A stretch of 64,000 nucleotides of DNA, from NCBI GenBank assembly GCA_035288905.1, contig DATDYZ010000001.1, forward strand, positions 19,172-83,171, in the 5' to 3' direction. A program made the position numbers and the translations under genes. The DNA is from Candidatus Anderseniibacteriota bacterium (GTDB taxonomy: Bacteria; Patescibacteriota; Andersenbacteria; UBA10190). Numbering within the stretch: the stretch's first letter is position 1; every line of letters begins with the position of its first letter. Below, in pieces: positions 1-54,077 of this stretch. Below the pieces are notes generated by a model. The model was not told where the DNA came from. It did not search any database and saw only the letters and a list, made by a program, of their open reading frames with translations.

Positions 1-348
1 ATGGCTGATACTCCACAAAATGACGTAGTAGCTGAGGTAGTACCTCCTCGTATTCGCATAAAGCTGAAGGCGTACGATCATAAGCTTATTGATCAATCTG
101 CCAAGCAGATTATGGAAGCGGTAGAGCGGGACGGCGCAAAAGTCGCCGGCCCCACTCCGCTCCCGACGAGCAAGAAAAAGTACACGGTGAACCGTTCTAC
201 CTTTGTGCATAAAAATGCCAGAGATCAGTACGAGATCCGCGTACACAAGCGCTTGATCGATATTATTACATCAACTCCGCGTACGGTAGATACTCTTATG
301 AGCTTGAATCTCCCTGCAGGCGTGGACGTGTCGATGAAGACGGTGTAA
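1..348 (+). CDS. rpsJ: 30S ribosomal protein S10
   Basis: The protein carries typical S10 segments [11 protein letters not shown]...[19 protein letters not shown] and AGVDV. It sits at the head of the r-protein operon. Confidence 0.9.
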
Positions 349-351
349 GTG

Positions 352-413
352 TGTCATCCCGGGCTTGACCCGGGATCCACGCGTAGATTCCGGCTCACGG
401 GCCGGAATGACAG
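352..413. repeat. Family A palindromic repeat (GTCATCCCGGGCTTGACCCGGGATCC...CCGGAATGACA), MITE/REP-like with imperfect terminal inverted repeats
   Basis: Seen directly. It is near-identical to copies at 13558, 18531, 28450 and 47946, and has two internal GC-rich hairpins. Confidence 0.8.
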
Positions 414-428
414 GTTACTACCACTAAA

Positions 429-455
429 AACCTCGCATTATATGCGGGGTTTTTG
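429..455 (+). terminator. Rho-independent terminator-like hairpin after rpsJ and repeat A
   Basis: CCTCGCA-ttata-TGCGGGG followed by TTTTT. Confidence 0.5.
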
Positions 456-494
456 GCGTATATGACCTTCAGGAACCTACAACAATCTCGCTCT

Positions 495-523
495 TGACAG
501 AAGCGCTACTTTAGGTATATAAT
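495..523 (+). promoter_or_regulatory. Sigma70-like promoter
   Basis: TTGACA, 17-nt spacer, TATAAT. It lies upstream of the small ORFs inserted before rplC. Confidence 0.55.
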
Positions 524-589
524 AGTACGAGTGGCTGGTATAGGTTTACTAGCTTGGACGTTGAAAACCTGTCAAAGGATTAGTGTATC

Positions 590-967
590 ATGTGGGAAAT
601 TCTCCGTTATGTTGCTGTTGCGGCACTCTTGATTCCGATTGTATTTATGCTCTGTGCCATTGAGACCGGCATCAGAGAAAGGGCCTTGAAGTTCCGAGGG
701 TTGCTCGATCTCCCGACCGGGGTCGAGTTCGTCATGATCGACAGGTTCCAGGTTAGAGACACTAAATGTCTTATAACCAGGGCCAAGCGGCGATTATTAG
801 TACAAAATGACTATCTTGTTATCGACTGGGATGCTCTCCAACAAAACGAACATTTCGAGATCGTCAGAACTACAAAAGGAAGGGTGGTTAGAAAGATCGC
901 AGAGCAGCCGAAACAAGCGGTTGAATCCGATCCGTTCGGTCTGCTCGAGCAACTCGAGCGAGTCTAA
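590..967 (+). CDS. Hypothetical small membrane-anchored protein (N-terminal TM helix), inserted between rpsJ and rplC
   Basis: Long ORF with coding-like composition, an AAAGGA motif upstream and an N-terminal hydrophobic helix. I recognise no family for it. Confidence 0.45.
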   Translation: MWEILRYVAVAALLIPIVFMLCAIETGIRERALKFRGLLDLPTGVEFVMIDRFQVRDTKCLITRAKRRLLVQNDYLVIDWDALQQNEHFEIVRTTKGRVVRKIAEQPKQAVESDPFGLLEQLERV

Positions 968-1086
968 ATCCCGCGCAGGAAAAAGTATATTCAGAATTAC
1001 ACCGGCGATCTTTATTGATTGCCGGTTTTTTTATATGTAGAATATGTTGGGGCGGGTTACTGATTGTTTTTTTGAAAGGGATACGT

Positions 1087-1413
1087 ATGATAGTTGTTGG
1101 ATTCTTGTCTGGCTGTTTTATTGCTTTTCTACTCTTGCTCTTTTGGAGATGGTATTTTTACCGGGTGTGGCCTTGGGAAAAACTGCCGTTCGATGAGCGG
1201 TTTATCGTCTTGTGCCAGGAGAATATGGAGCATGTGTACTTGGTTCGACGAGTGGCAGTGAAGATGTTTCGTCGAAACAAGTTCGTAGTCAGGTTATCTG
1301 AAGCTATCCAGGTTGGGGCAGAGATATTGGTGCAGGATTTTCGAGGCATGCCCTGCCTCAAGATTTGTAAAAGGACGGTTGTCTTGGAAGGCTTCTCTGA
1401 TCCCTTTGAGTAG
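1087..1413 (+). CDS. Hypothetical small membrane protein (N-terminal TM, about 80-aa soluble tail)
   Basis: ORF with AAAGGGA 8 nt upstream of the ATG at 1087. The track ORF 1015..1413 is trimmed to the internal start. I recognise no family. Confidence 0.4.
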   Translation: MIVVGFLSGCFIAFLLLLFWRWYFYRVWPWEKLPFDERFIVLCQENMEHVYLVRRVAVKMFRRNKFVVRLSEAIQVGAEILVQDFRGMPCLKICKRTVVLEGFSDPFE

Positions 1414-1545
1414 AATACCGGCGGCGAGATTTTCACCAATCCCCGCCGTTTTATTTGCGTTTTTTGGGGAGATGTTCTATCTTAAGAAATACCCGTGCTC
1501 GGGACTTAAGTTTTTTGTTTATAGGACACATGCTAATTTCGTATT

Positions 1546-2118
1546 ATGAAAGCTCTTCTCGGTCGAAAAGTTGGTATGTCTCAGGTATTTTCTCCTAACG
1601 GAGATGTTGTTCCCGTTACCTTAATTTCTGCTTTTCCGAATACTATTACGATTCGTCGTACTATAGAAAAAGATGGATATGCAGCTGTGCAGCTTGCCCT
1701 TCCCAAAAAAGATGATTCTAAACTATTTGCTGTCCGTAAGGAATTTCATGGGGAAATGCCTGCGGACGTTTCTGTTGTAGGGGTTGATCAGTTTGCAGAA
1801 GGCGATGCAATTGAAGTTACGGGTGTTTCAAAAGGAAAAGGGTATGCCGGAGTGGTGAAGCGTCATCACTTTAAAGGAGGGCCGAAGAGTCACGGCCACA
1901 GGCACGTACTTCGCAGACCCGGTTCTATTGGATCACGATTTCCCCAGCATGTAATGAAAGGTATGCGCATGGCAGGGAGAATGGGGTCTGATCAAGTAAC
2001 GGTGAAGAATTTAGAAATTGTGAAAATAGACACCGAACATAACGTGATTGCGGTAAAAGGAGCTGTGCCTGGGCGCAAGGGCGGCGTTGTTGAGATTCTT
2101 GGCATTGGAAAGAAATAA
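1546..2118 (+). CDS. rplC: 50S ribosomal protein L3
   Basis: L3 motifs: KVGMSQVF at the N-terminus and the FKGGPKSHG loop. Operon position fits. Confidence 0.95.
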   Translation: MKALLGRKVGMSQVFSPNGDVVPVTLISAFPNTITIRRTIEKDGYAAVQLALPKKDDSKLFAVRKEFHGEMPADVSVVGVDQFAEGDAIEVTGVSKGKGYAGVVKRHHFKGGPKSHGHRHVLRRPGSIGSRFPQHVMKGMRMAGRMGSDQVTVKNLEIVKIDTEHNVIAVKGAVPGRKGGVVEILGIGKK

Positions 2119-3211: not shown

Positions 3212-3219
3212 ATTCTCCT

Positions 3220-4062
3220 ATGCCTATTAAAAACTACAAACCAAATCGCGCAGCACGAAAGAATATGTCTATTGTGGATCGTGCAGAACTATACAAAGGG
3301 GAACCACTCAAGTCTTCTCTTTCTTCTAAGCATGCAACCAGTGGCCGAGGATCCGCAGGAAAAATTACAACGCGTCACCGTGGAGGTGGAGTGAAGCGGC
3401 GTCTTCGTGAGATAGCGTTGGGGCAAGAAAAGATTGGAATTGCTGGTACGGTGGAACATGTTGAATTTGATCCGAATCGCAGTGCGTATTTGGCACGTAT
3501 TGTATATGTTGATGGAGATCGCAATTATGTGTTGGCGTGGCAGGGCGCAAAAGAAGGCGACCAAATCATCACAAATGAAAAGACCATTGAAAAAGAAGGG
3601 AATCGCATGAAGCTTGCAAACATCACTCCTGGAGTATTCGTATTTAACGTTGAGATTAAACCAGGACGTGGCGGGGCATTCTTTAGGTCAGCAGGCTCAT
3701 ATGGCGTTTTAATGGACGTGCAAGGGGAATATGCGCAGCTTCGCATGCCATCAAGCGAGATCCGCTTGATTTCGGGGCAATCGTATGCCACAATAGGCCA
3801 GGTCAGTAACCCCGATTGGCGTCTACAACGCATTGGGTCAGCTGGAAGGAATCGTCGCCTGGGGATGCGTCCTCAAGTTCGCGGTAAAGCAATGAACCCG
3901 GTAGATCATCCGCACGGCGGTGGTGAAGGCAATCAGAGCGTTGGAATGAAATATCCAAAGACTCCTTGGGGTAAACACGCATTGGGAGTGAAAACACGTC
4001 AGCCAGGAAAATATTCAGATATGTTTATCGTAGAGAGAAGGAAGAATAAACGTAAGAAATAA
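3220..4062 (+). CDS. rplB: 50S ribosomal protein L2
   Basis: GRNxxGxITxRHRGGG, PNRSAYLARIVY and HPHGGGEG motifs. Confidence 0.95.
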   Translation: MPIKNYKPNRAARKNMSIVDRAELYKGEPLKSSLSSKHATSGRGSAGKITTRHRGGGVKRRLREIALGQEKIGIAGTVEHVEFDPNRSAYLARIVYVDGDRNYVLAWQGAKEGDQIITNEKTIEKEGNRMKLANITPGVFVFNVEIKPGRGGAFFRSAGSYGVLMDVQGEYAQLRMPSSEIRLISGQSYATIGQVSNPDWRLQRIGSAGRNRRLGMRPQVRGKAMNPVDHPHGGGEGNQSVGMKYPKTPWGKHALGVKTRQPGKYSDMFIVERRKNKRKK

Positions 4063-4074
4063 CATTTTATTAAT

Positions 4075-4404
4075 ATGTCTCGATCACTCAAAAAAGGACC
4101 ATTTATTGACCAGCATCTTCTTGATAAAATCAAGAATCTTGCGAGTGGAAGCAAAACGATTATCAAGACATGGTCTCGTAGATCTACGATCTTTCCTGAG
4201 ATGGTCGGGTTTCGTTTTGGTGTACATAACGGCAAAGATCATATTACTGTTCTTGTAACAGAAGACATGGTTGGTCATAAGCTTGGTGAGTTTGCTTCTA
4301 CTCGAAAATTTGTTCGTCATGGTGGAAAGCTTCAAAAAGAAGTGGAAACAGCGAAGGCTGCCTCCTCCGCTACCACCGCTGATGCTTCGGCGGGTAAAAA
4401 ATAA
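4075..4404 (+). CDS. rpsS: 30S ribosomal protein S19 (with C-terminal Ala/Ser-rich extension)
   Basis: [12 protein letters not shown]..., [25 protein letters not shown]. Confidence 0.92.
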
Positions 4405-4413
4405 AGATTTTTT

Positions 4414-5031
4414 ATGCAAATATCTGCTACACAAAAACATACGCGCATGTCTCCAAGAAAACTGCGTCCGTACGCTCGCATGATTCAGGGTATGTCGGCA
4501 CAAGAGGCACAAAATCAGTTGACTCTGGCAGTAGGGAAGGCACCGGTAATAATTCTTGAAGTACTCAAGAGCGCAATTGCCAACGCTACACACAATGCAA
4601 AAATTCCTGTATCAGATTTAAAGGTTGCAAGTATTCTCGTAAATCAAGGGCTTGTTATGAAGCGTTTTATGCCCGCGGCCAAAGGAATGGCGCATCCTAT
4701 TTTAAAGCGCACGGCGCATGTTACGGTTATAGTTAGTGGCGACCCAGCCGTCGCTAAAGCTAAGGCGGGCAAGGTGCAAAATAAAGATGTAATTAAGACA
4801 GTTACTGCTGACCAGTTTGTAGCTTCGGAGCAAAAAGAAGCTAAGAAAGAAGCAACCCTTCGACAGGCTCAGGGTGAAGAGCTTTCTGAGCAGCATCTAG
4901 AAAAACATGAAACAGAGGAACGAAGTGTTGAAACGACTCTTGATAAGCAAGGTCAGGCATTTCAAAAAATAAAGATGAATCAAAAAGGTGCAGACAAGAA
5001 AAAGACGCATCGAAGAAAGAGTATCGGATAA
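4414..5031 (+). CDS. rplV: 50S ribosomal protein L22 with about 85-aa K/E-rich C-terminal extension
   Basis: L22 core (SPRKLRPYARMIQGMSAQEA...) followed by a low-complexity charged tail. Confidence 0.9.
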   Translation: MQISATQKHTRMSPRKLRPYARMIQGMSAQEAQNQLTLAVGKAPVIILEVLKSAIANATHNAKIPVSDLKVASILVNQGLVMKRFMPAAKGMAHPILKRTAHVTVIVSGDPAVAKAKAGKVQNKDVIKTVTADQFVASEQKEAKKEATLRQAQGEELSEQHLEKHETEERSVETTLDKQGQAFQKIKMNQKGADKKKTHRRKSIG

Positions 5032-5050
5032 TAACAAACACACTATTTCT

Positions 5051-5797
5051 ATGGGACGAAAAACAAATCCAATTATATTACGAGTCGGAAACATCCTCCA
5101 TAACTGGGATGCGAAGTGGTTTTCAGATAGCAAAAAAGATTTTCGTCATAACATTATACAAGATATTAAAATTCGAAATTACTTGAAGAAAAATTTGCGT
5201 GCAGCGTCTATTTCACGTGTTGAATTTGTACGCCAAGCCCGAGAGACCGTTCTTACTATTCATACCTCTCGACCAGCAGTAGTGATTGGACGTGGAGGGT
5301 CTGGGATTGAGAAAATACAGAAAGATTTTCAAAAAATGTTTGGAAAAACGACGAAGTTCCGTATTAACGTACAAGAAATACGCAACCCAGACACTGACGC
5401 CAGCGCAGTTGCAACACAGGTTGCTGACCAAATTGAGCGAAGAATGCCATATAGACGAGTACTGAAGCAATCCGTTCAACGTTCGCTCCAGGCTGGTGCA
5501 CGAGGAATTCGTATTGCAGTTGCAGGACGCCTAAATGGTGCAGATATTGCGCGTAGGGAGTGGCTTGCAGAGGGTAGTGTTCCATTACACACCTTCCGAG
5601 CGGATATTTCGTATGCAGAGCGTACAGCTCATACAACGTTTGGTGCAATTGGTGTGAAGGTATGGATTAATAGGGGGGAATATGAAATTGAAAAGGAAGA
5701 ACGTCCGGGTGAAACGATTGGCGAAACAAAGCAGGCAAAACCAGCTCCAAGACGCCGTGCTTCGCTTTCTGAAAAAGTTGCCCCAAGTGCAACATAA
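5051..5797 (+). CDS. rpsC: 30S ribosomal protein S3
   Basis: MGRKTNPIILRVG N-terminus and a KH domain. Start trimmed from track ORF 4988 to the ATG after the rplV stop. Confidence 0.92.
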   Translation: MGRKTNPIILRVGNILHNWDAKWFSDSKKDFRHNIIQDIKIRNYLKKNLRAASISRVEFVRQARETVLTIHTSRPAVVIGRGGSGIEKIQKDFQKMFGKTTKFRINVQEIRNPDTDASAVATQVADQIERRMPYRRVLKQSVQRSLQAGARGIRIAVAGRLNGADIARREWLAEGSVPLHTFRADISYAERTAHTTFGAIGVKVWINRGEYEIEKEERPGETIGETKQAKPAPRRRASLSEKVAPSAT

Positions 5798-5805
5798 ACC
5801 ATCCT

Positions 5806-6699: not shown

Positions 6700-7067
6700 T
6701 TCAGGAAGAATCCAAATTAATGATTGCTGATAACTCGGGAGGCAAAATGATTAAAGTTATTCGTGTACTGGGTTCCACTCACCGCAGATATGCATACATC
6801 GGTGATACCGTTGTGGCTGCTGTAAAAGTTGCAGAGCCTCGAGCAACTGTAAAAAAAGGTGACGTTGTACGCGCCGTTATTGTTCGGGTTCGGAAGGAAC
6901 ATAAGCGTCCAGACGGCACTGCTATTCGGTTTGACGATAACGCAGCAGTGATTGTGGGCAAGGAATCCAAAGAACCCGTTGGTACACGCGTATTTGGCCC
7001 GATAGCACGAGAACTTCGAACAAAGGGATTCCAGAAAATCGTATCTTTAGCATCCGAGGTTTGGTAA
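6696..7067 (+). CDS. rplN: 50S ribosomal protein L14
   Basis: [17 protein letters not shown]... The ATGA start overlaps the rpsQ stop. Trimmed from track ORF 6663. Confidence 0.93.
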
Positions 7068-30030: not shown

Positions 30031-30444
30031 ATGAAACGAGCGACGTTATTCACAGACGGCGGGGCGAGGGGTAACCCGGGTCCCGCCGCAATCGGTTTTG
30101 TGCTTACTGGTATTGGAAGCGCGCCTATTTTATATAAAGAATATATTGGGAAAGGCACGAACAACCAGGCAGAGTATCGTGCGTTATTAGCGGGTATTAC
30201 TCGTGCAAAAAAAGAGGGAGTAAAAGATTTGTTGTGCTATTTAGATAGCGAATTAGTGGTAAAGCAGGTGCGAGGAGAATACAGAGTTAAAAATGAAGAG
30301 CTAAAACTTTTGCTTACAGAAATAAAAAAACTACTACCCGTTTTTGATTCTATAACATTCCAACACGTTCCGCGCGCTAAAAACGCTATTGCGGATAAGC
30401 TGGTGAATGAGGCGTTGGACTCCAATTTTGCAGATGGACTATAA
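30031..30444 (+). CDS. rnhA: Ribonuclease HI
   Basis: FTDGGARGNPGPAA, NNQAEYRAL and the DSELVVKQ catalytic DEDD pattern. Confidence 0.9.
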   Translation: MKRATLFTDGGARGNPGPAAIGFVLTGIGSAPILYKEYIGKGTNNQAEYRALLAGITRAKKEGVKDLLCYLDSELVVKQVRGEYRVKNEELKLLLTEIKKLLPVFDSITFQHVPRAKNAIADKLVNEALDSNFADGL

Positions 30445-30782
30445 GCCGGATTCTGTTAAAGGCAATCATCTGTCTTGTTCTGCTATCGCTAGCAGAATCT
30501 TTGCCCTCTACCTGCCCCGTTATTCACGAAGCGACTTGAGGTTGCACTCGGTGGGGTTTGCACCCTCGCCGTATTACTACGGCGCGGCGTGGGCTCTTAC
30601 CCCACGATTTCACCATTGCTAATAAAAGCTGTTTGTTTCTGTTGCGCTCTTCGCCCTGCAAGCAGGGTCCCTAGGCTTGCGCCTGGCAGACGTTATCTGC
30701 CACTGTTTTCTTGAGTGTCCGGACTTTCCTCTCAGGCCCTTCGATTTCTCTCAGGGTAAAGCGATTGCCCATCCATCTGCGT
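30425..30782 (-). ncRNA. rnpB: RNase P RNA (bacterial type), antisense to the last about 20 nt of rnhA
   Basis: The minus strand reads GAGGAAAGUCCGGAC (P4 5' strand), GGUAAGAGCCCAC, and ACAGAAUCCGGCUUAUAG near the 3' end. The P1 helix GCAGAUGGA / UCCAUCUGC defines the ends. Confidence 0.75.
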
Positions 30783-50321: not shown

Positions 50322-50351
50322 TTGACAAAGTTGGCTGTATATGTATATAAT
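50322..50351 (+). promoter_or_regulatory. Sigma70 consensus promoter TTGACA-18-TATAAT, followed by a structured leader of about 128 nt
   Basis: Seen directly. Confidence 0.55.
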
Positions 50352-50479
50352 GCGAAATCGTTTGAGACCAGTGTTTTGCCTTATATATGGTGTTTTATAG
50401 GCAAAACAGTGTTCTCAAGGTGAGACCACTATGTCCCGAAACGGACATGAACGGATCTTTGACAAACAGGATAACGTAC

Positions 50480-51385
50480 ATGAAGCTCAGAAATACGGAA
50501 TTTGCGGATGTGATAGCCAGGTTTATATCAGTCCGAACAGGACTATTGGAGGACTGGGAAAAGTTCGCTGGAATCCAGGGATCAAAACAGCAGCGCGAAG
50601 GCGCAAGCACTGTATTGAAAGCAGACCTGTGGGCCGAGCAGCGGTTGGTTCCCGTTCTTCGTTACTTGTGGCCAGGTGTGCCTTTTCTCTGCGAAGAGGC
50701 AGGAAATTCCGGTCTCGCAACGCTCGTCCCAGGCATTGAACTGCTTTCGTGGGATGATGATGTCACCAACCTGCCCGACAATTTCGTCAGTGTTGATGGA
50801 GTTGACGGATCGGCACTCTATGCCAATCAGTGCTTTGAGCTCGTTGCGATGATGGCCGGTCTTGTTAAGGACGGTCGTCCAAGCGCTGGTATTGTCACGA
50901 TGCTTGATGATGGAGCAATGTATCACACTGGTGTCAACGGGCAGCCAGGTGTATTTAAGGGAGATAAGCCCCATGAAGAATGGCTTGTCCCGGTACGTCC
51001 GCTCAACAAGTGCTTGATCTGCGTCGATGACTGTGGAAGTGTGGATGAGGACTTCCGCAAACTCGTGACAAACATGTTGACGGGAACGAAAGATTTTGCG
51101 TATCCGATGAATACCCCGTCGGGCGCCGGCCCAATCAATGTGCTCAGAGGAAGAGCAGCTGCCTATGTCTCGAGTAACGCTCGAAACTGGGACCAGGTTG
51201 CAACTGCAGCTCTTTTGGGGGCGGCTGGCATGATTGTTCGGTGTTTGGACGGATCTGAAGTACCCTGGAAGCAGACTCGAATGCCGGCAGTGGTATTCGC
51301 TCGGGACGAGGAAACTTTCTGCTATATTCAGAAGCAGGCCAAGGAGTACCTCGAACTGCAGAAAAAGAAGCAGTCTGCCGCGTAA
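50480..51385 (+). CDS. Inositol monophosphatase-family phosphatase (IMPase/CysQ/FBPase superfamily), higher-GC paralog
   Basis: LCEEAG, SVDGVDGS (DPIDGT-like) and NWDQVATAALLGAAG (the WD.AAG motif). Start chosen by alignment with the paralog at 53159. Confidence 0.72.
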   Translation: MKLRNTEFADVIARFISVRTGLLEDWEKFAGIQGSKQQREGASTVLKADLWAEQRLVPVLRYLWPGVPFLCEEAGNSGLATLVPGIELLSWDDDVTNLPDNFVSVDGVDGSALYANQCFELVAMMAGLVKDGRPSAGIVTMLDDGAMYHTGVNGQPGVFKGDKPHEEWLVPVRPLNKCLICVDDCGSVDEDFRKLVTNMLTGTKDFAYPMNTPSGAGPINVLRGRAAAYVSSNARNWDQVATAALLGAAGMIVRCLDGSEVPWKQTRMPAVVFARDEETFCYIQKQAKEYLELQKKKQSAA

Positions 51386-53158: not shown

Positions 53159-54028
53159 ATGGAATTACAGAAAATAACAACATTATTTCAGACAACGGGA
53201 CAATTATTAATTGACGATTGGGGAAGACTTACAGGTATAGTTAGTGAAAAAGAAATACTTGAAGGATCAAGTTCCGTTTTACATGCAGATTGGATTGCAG
53301 AAAAGGCATATGTGCCTCTTGCAACAAAGTTGTGGCCTAACGTGCCAGTTTTGTGCGAAGAAGCTGGAACATCCGGAGTCGCAGATTTAATTTCAGGAGT
53401 TTCTTTGCTTCCACATGAAGATAATGTTATTGATTTGCCGTCAGACTTCATTAGTGCAGATGGAGTGGACGGTTCGGCGCTGTATGCAAATGGTATGTTT
53501 ACGTTAGTTTCTATGATGGCAGGGCTTATAAAAGACGGAAAACCTCACGCTGGGGTACTGATGGTGCTTGGTGAGAAGAAGCTGTATCACACAGGGATTG
53601 ATGGAAAGCCAGGTGTGTTTTATGGAGATCTCTCATATAATGAGTGGCGTTTGCCTGCTCGTCCTCTGAAACAGTCTTTGATAGGAACGGACGACAATAA
53701 GTCTGTTGATGCCAATTTTCGCAATCTTGTGATTAATAAATTAATGGGCAGTTCTGGTTTTAGATATCCTCTCAATATGCCCTCAGGCGCAGGGGCTCTC
53801 GCAGTTTTAAAGGGTAATCTTGCGGTATACGTAACGAGTAATGCGCGAAACTGGGACTTGGCTACCACGTCAGCACTTTGCATGGCTGCTGGTCAGGTTG
53901 TTCGTTGTTTGGACGGTTCCGAAGTGCCCTGGAATGTAGTGCGAATGCCGCCTGTCGTATTTGCTCGCGACGAAGAAACATTTTTATACGTGCACACATT
54001 AGCAAAAAACTGGCTTAACACTGTATAA
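53159..54028 (+). CDS. Inositol monophosphatase-family phosphatase, native-GC paralog of 50480..51385
   Basis: About half the residues are identical to the upstream paralog, with the same motifs (LCEEAG, SADGVDGS, NWDLATTSALCMAAG). Confidence 0.72.
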   Translation: MELQKITTLFQTTGQLLIDDWGRLTGIVSEKEILEGSSSVLHADWIAEKAYVPLATKLWPNVPVLCEEAGTSGVADLISGVSLLPHEDNVIDLPSDFISADGVDGSALYANGMFTLVSMMAGLIKDGKPHAGVLMVLGEKKLYHTGIDGKPGVFYGDLSYNEWRLPARPLKQSLIGTDDNKSVDANFRNLVINKLMGSSGFRYPLNMPSGAGALAVLKGNLAVYVTSNARNWDLATTSALCMAAGQVVRCLDGSEVPWNVVRMPPVVFARDEETFLYVHTLAKNWLNTV

Positions 54029-54048: not shown

Positions 54049-54077
54049 TTGACAATAGTACAATATAGGTATATAAT
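54049..54077 (+). promoter_or_regulatory. Sigma70 consensus promoter TTGACA-17-TATAAT
   Basis: Seen directly. Confidence 0.55.

Follow-up and report, generated by a model that had tools for sequence, protein, structure and literature searches.

Layout of the locus

The interval considered here separates rpsJ from rplC, the genes of ribosomal proteins S10 and L3, in 64,000 nucleotides (nt) of groundwater DNA of Andersenbacteria, which belong to the Candidate Phyla Radiation (CPR), also named Patescibacteria. This whole stretch is called the window below, and its positions 349–1545, which were the object of the study, are called the spacer. The gap between the two genes amounts to 1197 nt and is occupied by a doublet of units resembling repetitive extragenic palindromes (REP), several predicted transcription signals and two small open reading frames (ORF1 and ORF2), each coding for a protein with an N-terminal transmembrane (TM) helix (Table 1).

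Contigs of the same species have the order tuf, rpsJ, ORF1, ORF2, rplC, rplD, rplW, rplB, rpsS and onward. Both small genes were predicted by gene callers in public assemblies, and exact-sequence matching found them on same-species metagenome contigs from groundwater and aquifer samples. The spacer of such contigs, obtained from several samples, is identical, save one non-coding single-nucleotide difference in each of two contigs; this within-species polymorphism is too scarce to gauge selection on the spacer. The stop codon of tuf overlaps the start codon of rpsJ (same-species contig L001: tuf 3216–4412, rpsJ 4412–4759), and, therefore, there is no space for a leader ahead of rpsJ.

The marks of a classical S10 operon, namely a promoter with a leader upstream of rpsJ, a short distance between rpsJ and rplC and an interval free of terminators, are all lacking at this locus; in silico, terminator-like hairpins lie at 426–454 and 1001–1033, and a weaker one at 1419–1465. 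The arrangement is that of a str-type unit ending in rpsJ: the latter gene is situated directly 3' of the gene of elongation factor Tu (EF-Tu) in the same orientation, and a predicted terminator comes after it.

A previous sequence-only reading of the stretch had reported a repeat, a terminator-like hairpin and two ORFs with one N-terminal TM helix each in the spacer, and all of these were found in place. The promoter, described there as a near-consensus TTGACA-17-TATAAT, does exist and even matches the consensus perfectly, at 12 of 12 positions, with a spacing of 18 nt and not 17. The terminator of ORF1, the promoter-like and Shine–Dalgarno-like sites of ORF2, the hairpin after ORF2 and the conserved block upstream of rplC had been missed.

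Table 1. Predicted features of the rpsJ–rplC spacer and its borders (window positions, unless a related locus is named)
Feature	Position	Strand	Description
rpsJ (S10)	1–348	+	Pfam Ribosomal_S10, E 1.9e-35; closes the tuf-rpsJ unit
REP-like doublet ("Family A repeat")	353–411		Two convergent palindromic units, GTCATCCCGGGC-TTGA-CCCGGGAT plus partner, directly after the rpsJ stop codon
Intrinsic-terminator-like hairpin ending tuf-rpsJ	426–454	+	A tract, stem CCTCGCAT/ATGCGGGG, then T5
Putative sigma-70-type promoter of ORF1	494–523	+	TTGACA 494–499, 18-nt spacer, TATAAT 518–523; 12/12 match
Hairpin in the 5' untranslated region (5'UTR) of the ORF1 cassette	534–553	+	GCTGGTA-TAGGTT-TACTAGC; centroid fold
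ORF1 (125 amino acids, aa)	590–967	+	N-terminal TM helix, beta-rich domain of ~75 aa (five predicted strands), acidic tail with SDPFG motif
Predicted intrinsic terminator of ORF1	1001–1033	+	10-bp stem (1001–1026), 6 G-C pairs, 6-nt loop, then T7
Weak promoter-like site for ORF2	1015–1043	+	TTGATT, 17 nt, TAGAAT; 9/12; overlaps the ORF1 terminator
ORF2 (108 aa)	1087–1413	+	N-terminal TM helix, soluble domain of ~80 aa, C-terminal SDPFE
Hairpin and T-rich tract after ORF2	1419–1465	+	CGGCGG...CCGCCG; weaker terminator candidate; T tract enters the conserved rplC-upstream block
rplC-upstream block	1455–1545	+	Candidate promoter and leader; conserved in 10 lineages
rplC-upstream block in relatives	L011 3729–3824, L012 5905–6003, L013 2500–2594, L014 1690–1815, L015 868–992		
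rplC-upstream block in relatives	L016 5878–6003, L017 1092–1216, L018 5860–6003, L092 6794–6892		
rplC (L3, 190 aa)	1546–2118	+	Pfam Ribosomal_L3, E 3.1e-17; heads the L3-L4-L23-L2-S19... cluster

The rpsJ–rplC junction in other genomes

One genome per species was scanned for relatives of the window L3, and the distance from rpsJ to rplC was measured at each locus. A spacer of 583–3387 nt was found in all eight relatives among Andersenbacteria for which rpsJ and rplC could both be placed. The gaps are 583 nt in L012, 614 in L017, 693 in L016, 903 in L014, 1142 in L018, 1560 in L013 and 3387 in L011 (L3 identity 73–82%), and in the eighth relative, L092, approximately 1.1 kb lies between the end of rpsJ at 5803 and the start of rplC at 6890. 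Non-CPR loci, mostly from Chloroflexota with some other phyla, have gaps of 3–422 nt, usually below 150 nt, in line with the earlier remark that rplC usually follows rpsJ directly in other bacteria. Because the wide spacing, the terminator-like hairpin after rpsJ and the block upstream of rplC are all clade-wide, the comparison shows the split between rpsJ and rplC to be ancestral in Andersenbacteria and not peculiar to the window genome.

Among other CPR loci, L021, L022 and L036 carry 2–5 kb at the same place and several others have less than 200 nt, and the junction seems to be repeatedly permissive in CPR. The content of these loci was noted separately. In L036, the interval between rpsJ and rplC (3703–5651) codes for three single-pass membrane proteins of 197–220 aa, which are paralogues in tandem, and the 2–5 kb of L021 (3938–6001) and L022 (969–6001) contain several unrelated genes.

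The content of the spacer varies strongly within Andersenbacteria. The largest one, in L011, consists of an ORF1 homologue, an antisense coiled-coil gene, an antisense gene with a helix-turn-helix (HTH) domain of XRE type, an AbiEii-type nucleotidyltransferase gene (Pfam PF08843, E 4.9e-13) with a partner of 80 aa, and a second ORF1 homologue. The AbiEii pair was found again in L013, an HTH gene in L014 and a coiled-coil gene in L017; L018 has an NYN-domain gene, L015 and L016 have other small single-pass membrane proteins, and L012 is almost empty. The identities of the shared proteins are 74% for AbiEii and 79% for its partner (L011/L013), 61% for the coiled-coil protein (L011/L017) and 39% for the HTH protein (L011/L014), compared with 79–83% for L3 in the same species pairs. 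The shared modules are orthologues situated at one site, as would be expected of an old islet from which modules were lost differentially; their exchange by recombination through the conserved flanks is a possible alternative. Taken together, these sequences support the view of the spacer as lineage-specific accessory DNA.

The AbiEii gene overlaps the unassigned 80-aa ORF by 4 nt in both species (L011 2024–3000; L013 1147–2057), and the small protein might act as a partner or antitoxin of an unconventional kind. An AbiEii gene of AbiE type IV toxin–antitoxin systems is absent from the window, according to Pfam and PADLOC.

ORF1 and its family

Each of the two spacer proteins has one N-terminal hydrophobic segment and no second one, with Kyte–Doolittle means over 19 residues of 2.45 (ORF1) and 2.75 (ORF2). 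Neither of them had been assigned to a family in the sequence-only reading, and both, as well as three homologues of ORF1, are without a match in Pfam, NCBIfam, PHROGs and PADLOC. Word-indexed searching of 5.8e9 protein clusters retrieved ORF1 alone with the ORF1 query and ORF2 alone with the ORF2 query. An exhaustive search of 1.84e9 cluster representatives gave only the proteins P0003, P0004 and P0005 as relatives of ORF1 (E 8e-13 to 1.5e-8), and a profile search of the 5.8e9 clusters added no further members. The sole addition from a metagenome scan was a second contig of the L011 organism, and viral contigs contained no relative.

The relatives are situated at L011 632–1102, L011 3149–3583 and L092 6067–6522. 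The family consists, therefore, of four proteins in three species, every one of them encoded between rpsJ and rplC. Identity of ORF1 to its homologues is 34–41%, the motifs are conserved, 22 alignment columns are invariant, and the similarity of ORF1 extends over the TM helix, the beta domain and the tail with the DPF motif. The relatives share one cassette, made up of a consensus-like promoter, a 5'UTR hairpin, the ORF and a hairpin-plus-T-run terminator. The promoter type of ORF1 is kept upstream of the homologues in L011 (both copies) and L092 and also in L012 (alignment A6), and terminators of this type were found after the homologues in the same loci. L012 is a deletion remnant, in which the promoter, the untranslated region, a 35-aa ORF coding for the TM segment only and the terminator remain and the beta domain has been deleted. 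The spacers of L013, L014, L017 and L018 gave no hit to ORF1 or ORF2 of the window, and no spacer ORF there resembles the family; the TM proteins of the L016 and L015 spacers show a marginal likeness to it (shuffle p ~0.02–0.03; hhalign E 0.017 and 0.077). The comparison shows a family that is native to the rpsJ–rplC islet in at least a subclade. As defined by these sequences, it is a previously undescribed, tiny, clade-restricted orphan family.

The family evolves rapidly. Between L011 and L092, the nonsynonymous divergence (dN) is 0.40 for the ORF1 family, compared with 0.017 for S10 and 0.052 for L3, i.e., 8–23 times that of the flanking genes. The ratio of nonsynonymous to synonymous divergence (omega) is 0.18 for the first L011 copy against L092 and 0.31 for ORF1 against L092; both values are below 1, although the synonymous divergence (dS) is near saturation. 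Judging from the conserved motifs shared by homologues at 34–41% identity and from omega below 1, ORF1 is clearly maintained.

Structure prediction gave modest results. The AlphaFold2 model of ORF1, built from a four-sequence alignment, is of low to moderate quality, with a predicted local distance difference test (pLDDT) value of 63.7, and comprises a helix at residues 2–31, five strands and a disordered tail. With low confidence, the domain of the family may be modelled as a small barrel resembling the oligonucleotide/oligosaccharide-binding (OB) fold, with the DPF motif in the tail. Searching the viral structures of BFVD gave nothing at E <= 0.001. A single-sequence model of ORF2 was poor and uninformative.

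ORF2 as a probable paralogue

ORF2 also has a variant of 132 aa starting from TTG. A Shine–Dalgarno-like site AAAGGGA is located at 1075–1081, 5 nt upstream of the 108-aa form, and the promoter-like site of the gene is a consensus match only, not conserved elsewhere. Scored against the hidden Markov model (HMM) of the ORF1 family, ORF2 reaches 13.7 bits, and none of 2000 shuffles preserving the TM segment attained this score (maximum 10.4). Alignment with the family by hhalign gave E 0.002 across 86 colinear columns, and the C-termini of both proteins end in an SDPF motif region. On the strength of the colinear alignment, the shuffle test and the common C-terminal motif, the comparison shows ORF2 as an apparent tandem paralogue of ORF1, species-specific and strongly diverged, which mirrors the two copies in L011.

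Signals between rpsJ and ORF1

The REP-like unit has the consensus GTCATYCCGG-loop-CCGGRAT and occurs seven times in the window (353, 411, 13558, 18532, 18593, 28540 and 47948), including two full doublets, 353/411 and 18532/18593; its 23-mer is present in 3 copies against 0 expected. These are imperfect palindromes, often arranged as inverted, convergent pairs, and are located mostly just outside the ends of annotated ORFs, usually right after stop codons, as is typical of elements of the REP or bacterial interspersed mosaic element (BIME) type. Both hairpins of the 353–411 doublet are present in the minimum-free-energy fold. L014 has a REP-like doublet (922/978) at the same position after rpsJ, and L018 has units at 754, 1279 and 1938. 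Short tandem-like repeats of another, TAGCTT type (TAGCTTCATTAGCTTATAGCTTCGTTAGCT...) were noticed right after the rpsJ stop codon in L011 (435–480), L012 (5420–5470), L017, L018 and L092 (5803–5850), where they occupy the position held by the REP doublet in the window and L014.

A hairpin followed by a T run was found after rpsJ in all nine lineages examined, the window included (eight in alignment A2, plus L092). The stem sequences differ among the lineages, and the pairing is kept. In the window, the segment 349–470 folds with z = −7.7.

Promoters with a 12/12 match to the sigma-70 consensus are rare in the window: there are three in 64 kb, all on the + strand and each just upstream of an ORF. 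Since the two sites other than that of ORF1 also directly precede + strand ORFs, the genome appears to use such promoters. These two sites, at 50322–50351 and 54049–54077, were recorded before a gene of the inositol-monophosphatase family in one case and before an unassigned gene of 210 aa in the other.

The 5'UTR hairpin of ORF1 occurs once in the window and is conserved in five cassettes, where each substitution preserves the pairing (U-A/U-G, G-U/G-C). Downstream of it, there are the conserved block CTTGAAAAC and a Shine–Dalgarno-like site AAAGGA (574–579).

The conserved block upstream of rplC

Over ten Andersenbacteria lineages, the block of ~95–130 nt has 37 invariant columns (alignment A8), and in the five closest lineages the columns are, on average, 82% identical (alignment A7). 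In the window it comprises TTGCGT (1455–1460) and TATCTT (1478–1483), 17 nt apart, a CCCG/CGGG hairpin at 1492–1503 nested in CTTAAG/CTTAAG, and a T run at 1511–1516. A CAYATGC motif with an invariant CATGC core stands at a fixed distance of 16 nt before the rplC ATG. The hairpin CCCG/CGGG of the window and L013 is replaced by CCCA/TGGG in L011, L012 and L092, a single swap of a G-C pair for an A-U pair.

According to nhmmer, the block is absent from all non-Andersenbacteria loci compared. Rfam gave no match at the gathering score anywhere in the spacer, this block included, and an E-value scan yielded only chance-level look-alikes of terminators. RNAalifold found no consensus pairs in alignment A1 of the block, owing to indels between subgroups.

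The block is kept whatever precedes it, even in L014 and L017, where the sole spacer gene is antisense. Because of this conservation irrespective of the upstream content, rplC is most likely served here by a promoter or leader of its own. The block may represent a clade-specific promoter combined with a leader or attenuator of ribosomal protein genes.

Interpretation

Summarizing these data, we consider it probable that the 1.2 kb represents, in this genome, an accessory islet of old age and variable content, located at a clade-wide boundary between the tuf-rpsJ unit and the operon led by rplC. Transcription of tuf-rpsJ would end at the conserved intrinsic terminator 426–454. ORF1 would form an autonomous one-gene cassette with a perfect promoter, 5'UTR hairpin, Shine–Dalgarno-like site and strong terminator, and ORF2 a second, weaker one. 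The genes from rplC onward would start from their own block at 1455–1545. With its own terminators and with the rplC block behind it, the islet would be insulated from the transcription of ribosomal protein genes. The sequence-only reading proposed that the promoter at 494 also drives L3...L15 and so rewires the S10 operon; this is unlikely, because ORF1 is followed by a terminator with 6 G-C pairs and T7, ORF2 by a hairpin with a T tract, and rplC is preceded by its conserved block.

With low confidence, ORF1 and ORF2 may be regarded as dispensable, fast-evolving accessory membrane proteins. A role in the envelope or in conflicts (interaction with phages or host cells, immunity) would be likelier than one in translation, although this, too, is proposed with low confidence. 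The reasons are that sister species have lost the family or keep it in truncated form, that it diverges 8–23 times faster than its flanks and that the islet of relatives holds AbiEii (with its small partner), XRE-HTH and NYN genes.

Several points weigh against this picture. All promoters and terminators, the promoter of rplC included, are read from sequence, and the candidate hexamers of rplC are poor matches to the consensus (TTGCGT 3/6, TATCTT 4/6). The hairpin after ORF2 is weak (−16.9 kcal/mol, z = −1.1, energy like that of shuffles), so that read-through from ORF2 into rplC is possible. The link of ORF2 to the family rests on 13.7 bits, with an hhalign probability of 13%. Codon usage of both ORFs is atypical, with scores of 0.004 (ORF1) and −0.06 (ORF2), which are under the 5th percentile of core-gene windows (0.12). 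The topology of two of the five members is ambiguous by the positive-inside rule. A role in conflicts or in the envelope is deduced by association with genes that the window lacks, the proteins have no match in PADLOC or PHROGs, and no viral contig carries a relative.

Alternative explanations

It is conceivable, though unlikely, that only the non-coding signals matter and that ORF2, perhaps together with ORF1, is a pseudogene, a non-functional remnant or a chance ORF. ORF2 is confined to one species, its codon score is low, its promoter matches at 9 of 12 positions, its structural model is poor, and L012 illustrates how the family decays by deletion. However, ORF2 is an intact frame of 108 codons, preceded at a distance of 5 nt by a Shine–Dalgarno-like site and followed by a hairpin with a T tract of its own, and its colinear similarity to the family is beyond 2000 shuffles. 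The annotated frames of both ORFs have the best codon score of six and exceed all 190 off-frame windows. As for ORF1, the identity of 34–41% to its homologues and omega of 0.18–0.31, with dS near saturation, speak for its maintenance.

The sequence-only reading saw in the spacer a foreign insert with a promoter that would drive L3...L15 as well; taken as a recent acquisition that has brought rplC and the following ribosomal protein genes under its consensus promoter, this explanation is, in our view, very unlikely. Such an origin would agree with the differences in spacer content between relatives, the lack of an ORF2 homologue elsewhere, the atypical codons of both ORFs, the REP-like doublet at the left edge and the weak terminator after ORF2. 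It is contradicted by the presence of a spacer (583–3387 nt) in all eight relatives, by the clade-wide rpsJ terminator and rplC-upstream block, and by the ORF1 cassette, which three further species have at this site (L011, L092 and, as a remnant, L012). A mobile island should be absent at this site in close relatives; the ORF1 cassette is present there, and ORF2 alone is species-specific. No integrase, transposase or recombinase was found in 349–1545, where ORF1 and ORF2 are the only ORFs of at least 100 aa (the others, of 30–93 aa, mostly overlap them). No direct or terminal inverted repeats bound the segment and no target-site duplication was found, the only repeats being of chance size (11–17 nt). 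The GC content of the spacer, 0.44–0.48, is like that of the flanks. Absence of relatives in viral contigs and the strong terminator after ORF1 also argue against this explanation. The junctions of relatives, which could distinguish an ancestral from an inserted state, show that ORF1 is ancestral within its subclade and that the pair of genes is not present throughout the lineage. Of the two analyses suggested for the small proteins, HMM searching gave no family, and structure prediction gave the tentative OB-like model for ORF1 and nothing useful for ORF2.

The constant location of the family might also be explained by a link to translation, with a membrane-tethered OB-fold protein acting on ribosomes, ribosomal protein mRNAs or translation factors at the membrane. 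All known members do reside in one spacer of ribosomal genes, and the positive-inside rule favours a cytoplasmic domain for ORF1, ORF2 and P0003. A weak sequence match to yeast uS17m (PDB, E 0.17) points in the same direction, but hhalign against a 27-sequence S17 alignment gave E 0.11, no better than unrelated ribosomal protein controls, and a uS17 origin was rejected. Moreover, the OB matches are of a generic kind, confidence in the model is low, several relatives lack the family or have it in truncated form, and its dN is far above that of S10 and L3. Vertical inheritance of the islet accounts for the constant position without a functional link. Such a role is quite improbable.

We also give little credence to the broadest proposal, in which the junction would be a dedicated CPR hot spot for genes of conflict or host interaction, the ORF1/ORF2 family a membrane-anchored OB-fold effector or immunity protein or a translation tether whose residence there is functional, and the rplC block could be, separately, a new autoregulatory leader.

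The islet reading thus replaces the idea of new DNA changing the control of a core operon: Andersenbacteria, one class of CPR, have the textbook arrangement of the S10 operon split after rpsJ, and genes that appear dispensable have long been tolerated at the place of the split. As a small, well-delimited example, the islet may serve for studying how orphan membrane proteins of ultra-small symbionts originate, duplicate, diverge and decay, and the clade-specific non-coding block before rplC stands out as a candidate promoter or leader. Current views on ribosomal operons and on the biology of CPR stay as they are, unless a function of the family is found. Publications mentioning Andersenbacteria were retrieved by full-text search, and none of them concerns the rpsJ–rplC locus by its title or abstract.

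Other features of the window

In the flanking genes, L3 of the window species has a deletion of 12 residues after about residue 56, which makes it 190 aa long against 200–203 aa in all nine relatives. An indel of 45 nt near the N-terminus of L4 (226 vs. 211 aa; window ~2126–2170, at the rplD start) separates strains of the same species (L002, L005, L006 and L007), whose rpsJ–rplC spacers show no other difference.

A direct repeat of 107 nt with 76% identity (51164–51270/53828–53934) links the 3' parts of two paralogues of the inositol-monophosphatase family (50387–51385 and 53159–54028). Two families of palindromic repeats, CCCTCTCCCCAATTGGGGAGAGGG with six copies (15144, 15421, 58749, 61428, 63734 and 63818) and TTATTCCAAGGCTTTGCCTTGGAAT with four (36270, 36982, 37707 and 44869), are probably terminators or REP-like elements. 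No tRNA genes were found in the 64-kb window; RNase P RNA of bacterial class A is encoded at 30426–30780 on the − strand (211.5 bits, E 3.6e-67).

Comparison with known systems

When situated just behind a stop codon, REP and BIME elements are able to stabilise the mRNA that precedes them. The units of the window are similar to the enterobacterial ones in being short, GC-rich, dispersed palindromes, often in convergent pairs and 3' of stop codons, and differ from them in sequence (GTCATYCCGG... here). Regarding the proteins, the single-pass membrane-anchored small beta-barrel proteins, including those of DUF2500/YhhM type, form the class with which ORF1 and ORF2 may be compared; identity with DUF2500 (PF10694)/YhhM was considered and rejected, the Pfam model not being matched.

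The S10 operon of E. coli has the same gene order from L3 on, and Andersenbacteria likewise have a structured element with a U run before the L3...L4 unit, which could in principle, by analogy, act as an attenuator. The L4-responsive leader of E. coli, however, is situated upstream of rpsJ, whereas in Andersenbacteria rpsJ overlaps tuf, and the block before rplC has no Rfam match and is restricted to the clade.

In archaea and in cyanobacteria and plastids, rps10 follows the gene of EF-Tu or EF-1alpha in an operon of str type. Archaeal uS10 is always apart from the uL3-uL4-uL23 cluster (PMC10833476). The two cases are alike in that S10 is not co-located or, as predicted for Andersenbacteria, not co-transcribed with L3-L4-L23; the units of Andersenbacteria are still neighbours on the same strand, 0.6–3.4 kb apart, with a variable islet between them.

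The closest parallel is provided by insertions at the junctions of the str-S10-spc-alpha operons (Brandis 2021, PMC8046335; Brandis et al. 2019, PMC6735719). Small gene insertions at the junctions of ribosomal operon clusters are the commonest type of rearrangement in Gammaproteobacteria and Bacilli (PMC8046335). Both there and here, a few unrelated genes stand between translation operons that are contiguous otherwise, and their content varies among descendants. In contrast, the break in Andersenbacteria lies inside the classical S10 operon and not between operons, the cargo consists of orphan membrane proteins and modules resembling toxin–antitoxin systems and not of metabolic genes, and the lineage belongs to CPR. 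The islet is a further example of the known junction insertions, and what is unusual in it is the position of the break in a bacterium, the hypervariable cargo and the presence of an undescribed orphan family.

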